A stretch of 64,000 nt of DNA from Myxococcota bacterium. GTDB lineage: Bacteria; Myxococcota; XYA12-FULL-58-9; JASMKV01. Below the pieces are notes generated by a model. It made no database searches. It saw only the letters and a list, made by a program, of their open reading frames with translations, and had not been told where the DNA came from. A program made the translations under genes and the position numbers. The stretch is taken from positions 4,523-68,522 of the forward strand of contig JASMKV010000301.1 of NCBI GenBank assembly GCA_030749035.1, in the 5' to 3' direction. Position 1 is the stretch's first letter. Each line of letters begins with the position of its first letter. Positions 3 to 4,633 of the stretch are shown piece by piece.

Positions 3-992
3 TTTACATTTAACGAGGCGATGTTAAGCGCAGAAGACAGAAGCTTTAGTGTTTTACTCAAAGGGCTTGATCCTGACACCGCGCATAAGGTGACCTCTGT
101 TGCAGAAAATATATGTGTTCCTCGTGCAAAAACATGTGTGCCGTTCAAAGACTCCAAAGTCAGCACCATCTTAGGTGAGATGCTTCACACCAAAAATAAG
201 CTTCCACAAATTATTGTCGGCATTCAACTCTTTCGCAAACTTGGTCTCAACATTGGCGACACTCTAAAACTTACAACGCCGGTCGGCATCGCTGGGGCAC
301 GAGGTAACGCCCCAAGACGTATCGCTTTTCGTTTAGCTGGTGCCTTTCGCTCGGGCATGCATGAATTTGACTCTCGACTTGTCTACGTCAATTATCAATC
401 CGCACAACACCTGATGGGGCTTGGACAAGCGGTCAATGGTTTAGAAATGCGCATCGCTTCACCGCAAAATGCTCAAGCCATTGGCGAACAAGCGCTCTCG
501 GCAGTCGGCCGTTATCCCTACCGTGTGACCGATTGGCGCGAACTCAATCACGGCATATTTACAGCCCTACAACTACAAAAAGTCGTGATGTTTCTTGTTC
601 TGACTTTTATTATCATCGTCGCTGCCTTCAATGTTGCCTCGACACTTTTTATGGCTGTGGTGGCCAAAAATCGTGAGATCGCCGTGCTCAAAGCCATTGG
701 TGCGCACGATGCCACGATTATGAAAATTTTTGTATTGGAGGGATGGATCTTAGGGCTCGTCGGCACCCTTGTCGGTTTGGTCATGGGCACTCTTCTGGCA
801 CTTTTACTTGGGCAGCTTGATATCCAGATTGCCGCCGATGTCTATATGGTCGAAGCCCTGAGAATAAAATTAGAATGGGTTGAAATCGCTTTTACCGCTT
901 TTTCCGCGCTTCTTATCTCGCATTTAGCGACGCTCTATCCAGCCCTTAAAGCGGCCCACACACTGCCCGCCGAAGCGATGCGTTATAACTAA
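3..992 (+). CDS. LolC/LolE-type lipoprotein-release ABC permease (FtsX-like), 5' partial; the reading frame is open to the window start
   Basis: The C-terminal region has four TM helices typical of the FtsX/LolCE family (…LVLTFIIIVAAFNV…, …ILGLVGTLVGLVMG…). A periplasmic domain precedes it, and the first TM helix is missing. There is no in-frame stop upstream of nt 21. Confidence 0.6.
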   Translation, partial: FTFNEAMLSAEDRSFSVLLKGLDPDTAHKVTSVAENICVPRAKTCVPFKDSKVSTILGEMLHTKNKLPQIIVGIQLFRKLGLNIGDTLKLTTPVGIAGARGNAPRRIAFRLAGAFRSGMHEFDSRLVYVNYQSAQHLMGLGQAVNGLEMRIASPQNAQAIGEQALSAVGRYPYRVTDWRELNHGIFTALQLQKVVMFLVLTFIIIVAAFNVASTLFMAVVAKNREIAVLKAIGAHDATIMKIFVLEGWILGLVGTLVGLVMGTLLALLLGQLDIQIAADVYMVEALRIKLEWVEIAFTAFSALLISHLATLYPALKAAHTLPAEAMRYN

Positions 993-2302
993 GACTGGTT
1001 TTTAAAAACAAAGGCTTTGAGTTCTTCTAAAAGTGCTTTGGCTTCCTTCGGCATGTCTTTGCTCAAATCCTTTTGTTCTAAAGGGTCAGCCTGCAAATCA
1101 AAAACCTGCACCACATCTTTATCGAAAGAAACTGAAGGAAAATATTTTCGATCCTTCACGTAACGATTAAACCAGGCTTCATCGGCAGGACGCTGCCAAA
1201 TCACTTTATAACGCGGTCCAATAATCGCTTGGCGGCGAATACCAAATTCATTGTATTCCGAAATGACCCGTGGATTTTTTTCTTTTGGTCCTAACATCGA
1301 TTTCCCGGGAATACTCTTCCAGGGCGTTCCGGCCAACTCGGCTACCGTCGCAACCACATCCAAGGAATCGGCAAGTCGGTCATCAACACCAGGTGTTATT
1401 TTGGGTCCCGCCACAATCAGCGGAACCTTAATGACTTCTTCCCAGAAATGGTGGGCGTGCAAATAAAAGCCATGCTCGCCAAAACCCTCACCATGATCTG
1501 CAGAGATCAAAAAAGTGCTTTTATCATAAAGCTTCATGCGCTTTAGCCCATCAAAAAGCTGTCCAAGCGCCAGATCTGCATAAGCAATTCCCGCATCATA
1601 AATGGCCAACATCGACTGGCGCTCAGCCAAAGAATAATCATTATCGTATTCCCAAAGGGCACGCCTACGAATCTTACCCTTGTGGTTGCCAAGAAACTTT
1701 TTCTCAAGTTCTGGCGGTGCATAATAAGGGTCGTGGGGATCGACAAGAAAGAGAAAAACAAAGAGCTTGTCTGCTTTGACATCCTCAAGCCATTCAAGTG
1801 TTCTGGCAATCAAGAATTCACCCGTAGGCAAACCATTATACGTCTTGCCCCTCACCTTTTTCGTGTAGGTGTTTGTTGGATCCCGAAAAACATCAAAGCC
1901 CTTTTGCAGACCTGCTAAGGAACCACCGTTACCGTTGGCCACAAAACCGGCTGTTGTCCAACCTGCTTGCTTTAAATGCTGCGCTAAAGTCCTCACGTCT
2001 TTCGGCAGTTTGGTTTTTGCTGTTTCCGTACGATGTCGTGAAGCGTTTTGACCGGTCAGAAAAGAGGCCGTCGACGGCCTGGTCCACGGCGCATTCACAT
2101 AGACACGCGTATAACGTTTGCCGACTTTTGCGAGTGCATCCATATTGGGTGATGTCGGCTTATCGTAGCCATAGGAACCCATGTGATCGGGCCGCATCGC
2201 ATCAACCAATGTCAAAAATATAATTTCGTTTGGACGAGCCTCTGCGACAGTAGAAAAAAGCAAAGCCAAAAAGGCAAAACAGGTGGTGTTCAATTTCAAC
2301 AT
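989..2302 (-). CDS. Sulfatase-like hydrolase/transferase of the alkaline-phosphatase superfamily with a signal peptide. Thr replaces the FGly Cys (…WTRPSTASFLTG…)
   Basis: There is an N-terminal signal peptide. The metal-binding motif reads LVDAMRPDHMGSYG. The active-site block aligns with the sulfatase C-x-P-x-R motif but has Thr at the Cys position and Thr at the Arg position. HGEGFGEHG supports an AP-fold metal site. Confidence 0.65.
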   Translation of the reverse strand: MLKLNTTCFAFLALLFSTVAEARPNEIIFLTLVDAMRPDHMGSYGYDKPTSPNMDALAKVGKRYTRVYVNAPWTRPSTASFLTGQNASRHRTETAKTKLPKDVRTLAQHLKQAGWTTAGFVANGNGGSLAGLQKGFDVFRDPTNTYTKKVRGKTYNGLPTGEFLIARTLEWLEDVKADKLFVFLFLVDPHDPYYAPPELEKKFLGNHKGKIRRRALWEYDNDYSLAERQSMLAIYDAGIAYADLALGQLFDGLKRMKLYDKSTFLISADHGEGFGEHGFYLHAHHFWEEVIKVPLIVAGPKITPGVDDRLADSLDVVATVAELAGTPWKSIPGKSMLGPKEKNPRVISEYNEFGIRRQAIIGPRYKVIWQRPADEAWFNRYVKDRKYFPSVSFDKDVVQVFDLQADPLEQKDLSKDMPKEAKALLEELKAFVFKNQS

Positions 2303-3227: not shown

Positions 3228-4633
3228 TGCGCCAAAGTACTATAATCTTGAGTCTTTTTGCTTTTTTCCTGCCTGTTCTATACCCGCAAATAAGCTCGCA
3301 AGCGCATCCGCAACATCTGTCCAAAAAGGCTGCACAAGCTGACACGGTGCATCGAACCGCCAAGACGCCGCATATTGTCGTGTTAACCGTCGACACCCTG
3401 CGGGCAGATATGCTCGGCTTTAGCGGCGGCCCGGCCAAAACCCCCAACATTGATGCACTGGCCGCACAAAGCTGGGTTTTTGCCAATTGTATTTCCTCAT
3501 CCATGCTGACAAGCCCATCGCACGCCTCTATTTTTACCTCGCTCTATCCACGTGACCATGGCGTTTACGACAATGCCAGCGGTATCCACGACAACATCAC
3601 CACCATCGCTGAACATGTGAAACGTTTCGACTATGCCACCGGGGCGTTGATCAATTTTCCTCACCTCAACCCTGAAATCTCAAATCTTGGTCAGGGTTTT
3701 GATAAAATCATCCCTGCCAGACCTGAAGAACGCCGCGCCGAACTGACAACTTCCTTAGCCCTCAATATTTTTGACCGCCTCCCGAGCGAAAAATCCAAAT
3801 TTCTTTGGTTACACTATGTCGACCCTCACGCCCCTTACGATGCGCCGCATCACAATCATGATGGGCACGATGCACAAACCCCCATCACCAAAGCCATTGA
3901 CAATGCGCCTGGATTCCAAAAGCATAATCAATGGTTTAAAAAGGCCTTTAGCAAATACAAAACCACTGAGGAACTCGTCGAGCGCTATATTGCTGAAATC
4001 GAGTATTTTGACCTGGGTCTTGGACAACTTATAAGCGGCTTAAAGAAGCGCGGTGTCTACGATGATACGATACTGGTTCTCACCTCCGATCATGGCGAAA
4101 ATCTAGGCGAGCATAATCTCTATTTTCACCATGGTGGCCTCTATCGCTCAACCACGCACGTCCCCCTTATCATGAAAGCGCCAGGCCAATCAGGAAGCAA
4201 AGATTTTTCACTCACGCAAAATATTGATATTGCCCCCACCATTCTTGATCTTGCCGCCATCCCCTACTGGCAAGGTATGCGCGGACGCAGTTTAGCCGCA
4301 CAAATCCAAGGCAATCAGCCCCCCAGAGACTTTGCCTTCTCTGAGCACATGCACGGTCAGCTGGTGTCGATTCGGACTTTAAACCATTCCTTAATTTTAC
4401 ACCGGGAGAACTCTTCGCAGTTCCCCAACTATCCCTTTCAAGCCGGGCATATGGAGTTTTACGACTTAACCCACGATCCCAAAGAGCAACACACTCTCAA
4501 GGCCGATTCACCTATCGCACAAAATTTAAGATCTGTTCTCGAAAATTATCTGGAGCATGGTCCAAAATGGAAAAGTCAAAACCAGTTTGCCCTGGCTGAA
4601 GACAGCCTGCGCGCTCTGGGCTATATCGAATAA
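3191..4633 (+). CDS. Sulfatase-like AP-superfamily enzyme (secreted). It has Thr at the FGly position (…LTSPSHASIFTS…). The true start is probably the internal Met near 3227, which begins a signal peptide
   Basis: The metal-binding motif is LTVDTLRADMLGFSG. The block T-S-P-S-H aligns with C-x-P-x-R. LTSDHGENLGEH is present. The signal peptide reads MRQSTIILSLFAFFLPVLY. Confidence 0.65.
   Translation: MGSLKTHGRSFSMRQSTIILSLFAFFLPVLYPQISSQAHPQHLSKKAAQADTVHRTAKTPHIVVLTVDTLRADMLGFSGGPAKTPNIDALAAQSWVFANCISSSMLTSPSHASIFTSLYPRDHGVYDNASGIHDNITTIAEHVKRFDYATGALINFPHLNPEISNLGQGFDKIIPARPEERRAELTTSLALNIFDRLPSEKSKFLWLHYVDPHAPYDAPHHNHDGHDAQTPITKAIDNAPGFQKHNQWFKKAFSKYKTTEELVERYIAEIEYFDLGLGQLISGLKKRGVYDDTILVLTSDHGENLGEHNLYFHHGGLYRSTTHVPLIMKAPGQSGSKDFSLTQNIDIAPTILDLAAIPYWQGMRGRSLAAQIQGNQPPRDFAFSEHMHGQLVSIRTLNHSLILHRENSSQFPNYPFQAGHMEFYDLTHDPKEQHTLKADSPIAQNLRSVLENYLEHGPKWKSQNQFALAEDSLRALGYIE

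Follow-up and report, generated by a model that had tools for sequence, protein, structure and literature searches.

Two exported sulfatase-fold proteins of a Myxococcota bacterium with threonine at the formylglycine position, candidate phosphoesterases on a sulfatase scaffold

We analysed a stretch of 64,000 nucleotides (the window) from the metagenome-assembled genome of a Myxococcota bacterium (GenBank assembly GCA_030749035.1, contig JASMKV010000301.1, positions 4,523 to 68,522 of the forward strand), which carries two genes for sulfatase-like proteins, called A and B here. An earlier note, made from the sequence alone, had described them as belonging to the alkaline-phosphatase superfamily and as having threonine in place of the residue that is converted to formylglycine (FGly) in sulfatases. 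It had placed them around a gene for an FkbM-family methyltransferase and near a gene for a protein of the formylglycine-generating enzyme (FGE) family, and all four open reading frames (ORFs) are present at these places (Table 1). The FkbM gene and A are on the same strand, 31 bp apart with the FkbM gene upstream, and B is divergent from them. The ORF of B opens at a TTG codon at 3191 (3191..4633, + strand, 480 aa), and residues of B are numbered here on the shorter version of the public gene calls. The FkbM gene is given 259–270 aa in public calls, with a start near 3146, and its membership in the FkbM family is clear from PF05050 (E 8.5e-17, 62 bits, cut-off 22.7) and TIGR01444 (83.9 bits, cut-off 37.7). 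Scans for promoter and terminator consensus sequences gave counts at chance level, save for one hairpin 3′ of B.

Table 1. Coordinates of the genes, sequence blocks and related loci. Positions are those of the window; the A2 loci (a paralogue clade of A, see text) lie in other genomes and are numbered on their own sequences
Feature	Position	Strand	Details
Protein A	989..2302	-	437 aa; Thr-type sulfatase-fold enzyme, exported; Sec signal peptide ...AEA|RP
A metal/His block D269-H270-G-E-G-F-G-E-H277-G-F-Y-L-H282	1457..1498	-	aligned with choline sulfatase and EptA
A nucleophile block T74-R-P-S-T78	2069..2083	-	Thr on the FGly position, Thr for the signature Arg; aligned on choline sulfatase C54-A-P-A-R58; codon of T74 at 2083..2081
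FkbM-family S-adenosylmethionine (SAM) methyltransferase	2334..3227	-	ORF of 297 aa; PF05050, TIGR01444
Protein B	3227..4633	+	468 aa from ATG 3227 (public gene calls); Thr-type sulfatase-fold enzyme, exported
B nucleophile block T95-S-P-S-H99 ... H111-G-V-Y-D-N116	3509..3574	+	NPP-type; aligned on choline sulfatase Cys54..Asn75 and ENPP1; codon of T95 at 3509..3511
B metal/His block D288-H289 ... H301-H302	4088..4132	+	aligned with choline sulfatase Asp296/His297 and Lys309, and with EptA
Terminator-like hairpin	4658..4677	+	7 pairs, 6 of them G-C, T-rich tail; 25 bp past the stop codon of B; consensus scan only
FGE-sulfatase-domain protein, stand-alone	11971..12741	-	256 aa; PF03781 E 3.5e-35
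A2 locus, Myxococcota	L023:8840-15546		
A2 locus, Myxococcota	L024:9848-14857		
A2 locus, Myxococcota	L025:9854-16405		
A2 locus, Myxococcota	L027:10040-18013		
A2 locus, Myxococcota	L036:8419-15686		
A2 locus, Spirochaete	L026:8872-16556		

Both proteins match the Pfam Sulfatase family PF00884 (E 2e-43 for A, 6e-43 for B) and, more weakly, PF01663 (64 bits in the case of B) and the C-terminal sulfatase subdomain PF16347; they share about 27% identity. For neither protein does any curated NCBIfam family reach its cut-off; the models for choline sulfatase, arylsulfatase and PehA score highest, and those for EptA/MCR come next. The earlier note expected such proteins to be mistaken for sulfatases, and this has happened: the database labels of A and B at NCBI and JGI are 'sulfatase', 'arylsulfatase' and 'arylsulfatase A-like enzyme'.

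A phmmer search of all PDB sequences returned choline sulfatase (SmCS/BetC) as the top match for A as well as B, and in these alignments the segments 'napwTRPSTasfltgq' of A and 'mlTSPSHasifts' of B lie on 'ssplCAPARasfmagq' of the choline sulfatase. The Cys54/FGly54 column is therefore occupied by Thr in both proteins (T74 in A, T95 in B) and the Arg58 column by T78 in A and H99 in B, so that neither carries the C/S-x-P/A-x-R signature of the S1 sulfatases. Conservation was counted over the best 120 homologues of each protein, with identities down to about 33%. T74 is found in 118/118 and T78 in 113/118 aligned homologues of A, and T95 in 118/118, H99 in 104/118 and N116 in 106/119 of those of B. 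Because Thr fills the column in every aligned homologue of both proteins, its presence is neither a chance event nor a local accident, and the reported substitution of the nucleophile together with the loss of the Arg extends over both families. A true nucleophile block elsewhere in the proteins, the finding named in the earlier note as the one that would speak against this alignment, was also looked for. No canonical [CS]-x-[PA]-x-R occurs at a plausible place in A or B, the only occurrence being S224 ('SLAER') in a predicted helix of A. Mature A is devoid of cysteine, since the signal peptide holds its only one (C8); B contains just C88. A and B cannot be substrates of an FGE, as had been argued.

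The rest of the active site was mapped on SmCS, with functional roles of the residues according to PMC5870055. Asp14 of SmCS corresponds to D34 in A and D56 in B, Gln15 to A35 and T57, Asn75 to A95 and N116, Lys102 to A122 and F144, His104 to G124 and H146, His201 to H190 and H201, Asp296-His297 to D269-H270 and D288-H289, and Lys309 to H282 and H301, the latter adjoined by the invariant H302. The mapped positions are 85–100% conserved among the homologues; D269, H270 and H282 of A are each present in 120/120, D288 and H289 of B in 120/120 and H302 in 119/120. Both proteins have thus lost the nucleophile Cys, the Arg and both sulfate-binding Lys and have kept the metal ligands, with His in place of the general-acid Lys. 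Among the cationic sulfate-binding and general-acid residues (Lys102, His104 and the His201-Lys309 pair of SmCS), His201 is retained in both and His104 only in B. The residues that would hold a phosphoryl group also differ between the two proteins, an invariant N123 in A and an NPP-type N116 together with H146 in B.

The residues that replace the sulfatase set are those of known Thr-nucleophile enzymes. EptA of E. coli aligns with the family profiles of both A and B with an hhalign probability of 96%. In B all six positions of the catalytic set are matched (6/6), with D56 on Glu, T95 on the nucleophile Thr, H201 on 'GSHGP', D288-H289 on 'SDHGE' and H302 on 'YLHG'. In A the His and Asp-His positions align (H190 on 'GSHGP', D269-H270 on 'SDHGE' and H282 on 'YLHG') and the Thr block does not. 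In MCR-1, Zn1 is bound by Glu246/Thr285/Asp465/His466 and Zn2 by His395/His478, and Thr285 has been found phosphorylated (PMC5216409). The catalytic domains of EptA, MCR-1 and EptC thus share with A and B the same constellation of an acid, a Thr, an Asp-His (Zn1) and equivalents of His395/His478. The membrane domain of EptA is absent, as A and B have a single N-terminal hydrophobic segment, and the NCBIfam EptA model gives 52 bits against a cut-off of 561. A second likeness, confined to B, is to the NPP enzymes. The block TSPSHASIFTSLYPRDHGVYDN of B aligns with T256..N277 of ENPP1, with 13/23 residues identical over ENPP1 256–278, and the N-terminal 94 residues of B match the NPP of Xanthomonas (Xac; E 1e-4). 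B thus has the NPP-type block T-x-P-x-H...L-Y-P-x-x-H-G-x-x-D-N, and A reads T-R-P-S-T ... H-R-T-E-T-A over the corresponding T-x-P-x-H ... H-G-x-x-D-N. Enzymes of the NPP and PafA types are soluble and exported, with a Thr nucleophile.

AlphaFold2 models of the two proteins are confident (pLDDT 90 for A, 89.5 for B), and both display the alkaline-phosphatase-like N-terminal domain and the C-terminal sulfatase subdomain that are typical of S1 enzymes. In the fold comparison S1 formylglycine sulfatases occupied the first ~13 places for A and ~29 for B, with values of 28–40, ahead of YejM/PbgA and VP1736 (31–33), LtaS/LtaP (28–30), EptC/EptA/MCR-1 (24–29) and NPP/PafA (~24–25). Since S1 sulfatases come first, the modelled scaffold of A and B is that of a type-I (S1) sulfatase; the catalytic residues placed on it are not of the sulfatase type. 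Identity to S1 sulfatases (SmCS/BetC, PDB 6fny and 7pth; carbohydrate sulfatases, 6hr5 and 8di0) is just 17–26%, and the nucleophile is Thr, not a Cys or Ser converted to FGly, with the Arg and both Lys replaced, His in place of Lys309 and, in A, His104 and Asn75 replaced as well. We therefore agree that A and B are not FGly sulfatases: the equivalents of Cys, Arg, Lys102 and Lys309 are lost, and the acid, Thr, Asp-His and two His aligned with EptA are present. Among other Thr-type proteins of PF00884, the periplasmic domain of YejM/PbgA and VP1736 (PDB 3lxq) are of uncertain activity, YejM being anchored by five transmembrane segments and having a degenerate active site. The LtaS-like 'TxNxE' proteins, false sulfatases in the PF00884 seed, share with A and B both the Thr at the nucleophile position and the mislabelling. 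Unlike them, A and B have retained both the T-x-P-S block and the sulfatase subdomain at the C-terminus, are structurally nearest to S1 sulfatases and have an EptA/NPP catalytic set. The Mn-dependent arylsulfatase EfAS, which gave a weak NCBIfam match to A and B, was considered as a characterised relative and set aside, being an ordinary Cys/FGly enzyme.

A search of 1.84 billion representative proteins, grouped in clusters at 50% identity, with the family A profile yielded 37,401 clusters at E<=1e-30, certainly with true sulfatases among them, of which the best 150 (E<=1e-68) were examined. The nucleophile column is Thr in nearly all full-length domains of these 150 clusters, Arg at +4 occurs in none of those listed, and the Thr and His set is present save in a few degenerate domains. 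About 16 of the 150 have a polytopic N-terminal membrane domain like that of LtaS and EptA; near relatives also include soluble and tandem-domain forms. Many near relatives of A (P0246-P0287) join two Thr-type sulfatase-like domains in tandem (900–1500 aa). In several of these fusions the catalytic set of one domain is degenerate, which suggests pairs of a catalytic and a non-catalytic domain, analogous perhaps to the separate A and B genes.

On these residues, A and B are probably exported Thr-nucleophile metallo-phosphoesterases built on an S1 sulfatase scaffold. Thr and extra His stand where sulfatases need a modified Cys, Arg and Lys, and therefore phosphate-ester cleavage or transfer is the most likely chemistry. 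What the analysis shows is the fold, a set of conserved substitutions and the alignments to EptA and ENPP1; that a metal is bound, that the chemistry is on phosphate and not on sulfate, and that the outcome is hydrolysis and not transfer are inferred. One metal (Zn2+ or Mn2+), held by Asp34/Thr74/Asp269/His270 in A or Asp56/Thr95/Asp288/His289 in B, would activate the Thr hydroxyl to an alkoxide, and the Thr would then attack the phosphorus of a phosphate mono- or diester to give a covalent phospho-Thr intermediate. Two further invariant His (His190 and His282 in A; His201 and His301/302 in B), with an adjacent Asp two residues before the first His, may bind a second metal, or may hold the phosphoryl group and give the leaving group its proton. 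The phosphoryl group would be released by water or, less likely, by an acceptor hydroxyl, and neither formylglycine nor a maturation enzyme would be needed. A periplasmic or envelope-associated phosphodiester or monoester appears the likeliest class of substrate.

Several observations weigh against this proposal. Neither a characterised member of the clade, nor a curated family or a paper devoted to it, was found in the literature and family databases, and since no NCBIfam family reaches its cut-off either, the chemistry of A and B is deduced from residues only. The N-terminal nucleophile block of A is misaligned with EptA in hhalign. The scaffold, including the C-terminal SGSH_C subdomain, is nearer to true sulfatases than to any phosphotransferase. 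A Thr-nucleophile PafA has been reported to have its best kcat/KM on a sulfate ester, though with a tiny kcat (PMC12594817). Finally, operons headed by paralogues of A (the A2 clade, described below) are recurrently linked with genes for APS kinase, sulfotransferase and the permease TauE, and in one genome an orthologue of A adjoins such an operon.

Export and gene neighbourhood bear on the substrate. Proteins of family A carry Sec signal peptides. In about 40% of the listed relatives of B a lipobox Cys sits near residue 15, with a disordered linker after it; B of the window has a hydrophobic N-terminus without Cys and a predicted disordered segment at residues 19–43. The window is a core envelope region with genes for LolE, SLT, MltG, TamB, BamA, KdsB, PyrG, KdsA, LpxL, LptB and RpoN. 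Over the 39 related loci examined, A and B stand side by side in divergent orientation in the window genome and seven others, nine orthologues of A have no B nearby, and genes for a lytic transglycosylase (SLT) and a 2Fe-2S ferredoxin are frequent neighbours. In one genome (L037) a distant relative of B stands directly beside a kdsB-pyrG-kdsA-lpxL set, which the window has as well. In six of the genomes with an adjacent divergent A-B pair no FkbM gene separates the two; apart from the window sequence, a single relative (L006, 90% identical) has it there. As only these two carry it, the FkbM gene is a recent insertion at the A/B locus, not a conserved partner, and the synteny of the 39 loci leads us to reject it as a member of a conserved module. 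Thus A and B do flank the FkbM gene; the module for modification of a cell-surface or secreted molecule that had been proposed from this arrangement is weakened by those six genomes and by the nine orthologues of A without B.

An envelope setting would also suit transferases, in which a group such as phosphoethanolamine or phosphoglycerol, carried on the phospho-Thr, is handed to an acceptor in the periplasm or envelope (lipopolysaccharide (LPS), glucan or polysaccharide). EptA/MCR-1, LtaS and OpgB in its soluble periplasmic form set a precedent. We regard this as unlikely, if worth keeping in mind, since A and B have a signal peptide only and lack the polytopic membrane domain by which EptA and LtaS take lipid donors. 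The neighbourhoods of distant relatives of B are heterogeneous; of four examined only one is linked to LPS, and those of the other relatives are unrelated to the envelope. The association with SLT and ferredoxin genes, too, may be plain lineage synteny.

The A2 loci provide the lead towards sulfur. A2 is a Thr-type paralogue clade, 42–47% identical to A and with the same APWTRPST block, which heads a conserved operon in five Myxococcota genomes (L023, L024, L025, L027 and L036), a similar cluster being found in a Spirochaete (L026). Next in the operon comes a PF01663 protein of 712–737 aa, frequently with another of ~470 aa behind it; in the Spirochaete these accompany A2 rather than follow it. 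Near A2 lie genes for APS kinase (in L023 and L025), sulfotransferase (L026, L027 and L036), the TauE permease (L023) and a Methyltransf_24 protein (L036). In L036 the divergent neighbour of the A2 operon is a true orthologue of A, at 58% identity. The genes of these operons, including APS kinase and sulfotransferase, have no homologue in the window.

This pattern raises the possibility of an FGly-independent role in sulfur-ester chemistry, either with the Thr attacking a sulfate ester (as a sulfatase or sulfotransferase) or with cleavage of a phosphosulfate bond like that of adenosine 5′-phosphosulfate (APS) or 3′-phosphoadenosine-5′-phosphosulfate (PAPS). Besides the A2 pattern and the orthologue of A in L036, the S1 scaffold of A and B speaks for it, as does the promiscuous sulfatase activity measurable in Thr/Ser enzymes of the alkaline-phosphatase superfamily (PMC12594817). 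We nevertheless consider such a role rather improbable. Both families have other residues at the equivalents of Arg58, Lys102 and Lys309, the cationic set that holds sulfate in every S1 sulfatase, the window holds no homologue of APS kinase or sulfotransferase, and A and B are exported while PAPS is cytoplasmic. We know of no native Thr-nucleophile sulfatase. The same point is made by Barbeyron et al. 2016 (PMC5066984). The recurrent link of A2 with PAPS-dependent sulfation may thus keep a sulfur-ester role alive, and the loss of the cationic residues argues against a simple sulfatase. The rule 'Thr means phospho, not sulfo', as invoked in the earlier note, is for A and B something that we infer rather than a test, given a Thr-type clade that stands repeatedly beside APS kinase and sulfotransferase genes. 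On a larger scale, A and B belong to a very large branch in which an NPP/EptA-type Thr/His site takes the place of FGly, and it is conceivable, at quite long odds, that its members are FGly-independent enzymes of sulfated-molecule metabolism. They could then be Thr-nucleophile sulfatases, sulfotransferases or phosphosulfate hydrolases, and, if true, sulfate-ester chemistry would have a new catalytic solution, and phosphodiesterases and sulfatases would be bridged by a living intermediate.

Loss of the canonical nucleophile, Arg and lysines, in a clade with no characterised relative, might also be expected of inactive binding proteins (pseudoenzymes) derived from sulfatases. That A and B are such proteins is very improbable: the putative metal ligands, the Thr and four to five His are invariant over the 120 homologues and the 150 distant clusters, and because of this invariance the active site would be under purifying selection, not decayed. 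Anaerobic sulfatase-maturating enzymes (anSME) are reported to oxidise threonyl peptides to ketones in vitro. It is scarcely credible, despite this activity, that a radical-SAM maturase turns the Thr of A and B into a ketone, the methyl analogue of formylglycine and the product that Thr oxidation would yield (Barbeyron et al. 2016, PMC5066984), and so makes them sulfatases after all, as A and B lack the Arg and Lys by which sulfatases stabilise the FGly hydrate and bind sulfate, no anSME-type gene is present in the window and the modification has never been seen in a protein (same reference).

The gene that the earlier note took for a member of the FGE family encodes an FGE-domain (C-type-lectin-like) protein, as the match to PF03781 in Table 1 makes plain. 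FGE activity requires the Cys pair of the copper site, which in human FGE we take to be Cys336/Cys341 (C-x4-C after RGGS). The protein of the window has no C-x4-C pair after RGGS, and a single Cys (C231) is found in WASREEMCRTNVRNGYAPWGQWSHVGFRV. Its best NCBIfam matches, EgtB and SenA, are both far below cut-off, and its best PDB matches are the C-terminal domain of EgtB and SUMF2. Alignments to true FGEs end at residue 206–217, whereas those to EgtB and SUMF2, both likewise without the Cys pair, run to the end of the protein, the C-terminal 40 residues aligning to EgtB without a gap. Its product is very unlikely to be a true FGE, and the suggestion that one is encoded nearby can be dropped. 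It is not EgtB either because it lacks the DinB domain. We read it as a stand-alone FGE-fold protein that does not form part of the A/B unit; as a conserved partner of A and B it was rejected, since outside the window just one genome has a similar gene close to A/B (33% identity). No canonical sulfatase, functional FGE or anSME-type radical-SAM gene was found among the scanned ORFs of the 64-kb window. In a groundwater relative (L004/L005:49-4818), behind the genes for SLT, B and A come those for a trypsin-like protease and a 283-aa FGE-domain protein and two B12-binding radical-SAM genes, possibly a peptide-modification cluster.

Other features of the window are as follows. Between B and the ferredoxin gene lies a 517-aa ORF (4721..6274, - strand) that matches no Pfam or NCBIfam family significantly and lacks an obvious signal peptide. 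It is kept (59% identity) only in the closest relative, L006, its place being taken elsewhere by a different ORF of ~690 aa or by nothing. With 668 aa, the MltG/YceG homologue at 9788..11794 (- strand) is unusually long; its YceG domain covers residues 378–661 only, and the ~370 residues ahead of it include a Pro/Glu-rich stretch of low complexity. A contiguous outer-membrane/LPS block occupies 16560..30679 (+ strand) and comprises TamB, BamA (Omp85/POTRA), KdsB, CTP synthase, KdsA, an LpxL-type acyltransferase, an LptB-like ABC ATPase and RpoN. At 44137..47687 an exosortase (EpsH) gene stands near a gene for a DUF4388/Rce1-like CAAX protease, with one unassigned 234-aa ORF between them and S-adenosylhomocysteine hydrolase adjoining; the presence of the exosortase suggests a protein-sorting system of the PEP-CTERM type in the source genome. 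Three large ORFs of 565, 882 and 638 aa (42353..44050, 53144..55792 and 55936..57852) have no Pfam family, and the latter two sit where the G+C content climbs from ~0.46 to 0.515 (52–56 kb).

PF00884 holds many Thr proteins wrongly called sulfatases, from which false annotation has spread, the LtaS-like 'TxNxE' proteins being examples (Barbeyron et al. 2016, PMC5066984). The general point has been in print since at least 2016 and a further case is unsurprising in principle; the value of the present one is the definition of one specific, uncharacterised clade that can be put to the test. Many of the related 50%-identity clusters are probably mislabelled as sulfatases too, and counts of sulfatases from which polysaccharide degradation and sulfur cycling are deduced in marine Myxococcota, Planctomycetota and others would then be inflated. 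A sulfatase scaffold with an NPP/EptA-type Thr-His site is also a natural test case for the switching between phosphate and sulfate in the alkaline-phosphatase superfamily. A conserved divergent pair of exported enzymes in a region of envelope biogenesis, with paralogues in sulfation operons, points to an unstudied activity of modification or scavenging in the periplasm or at the cell surface.

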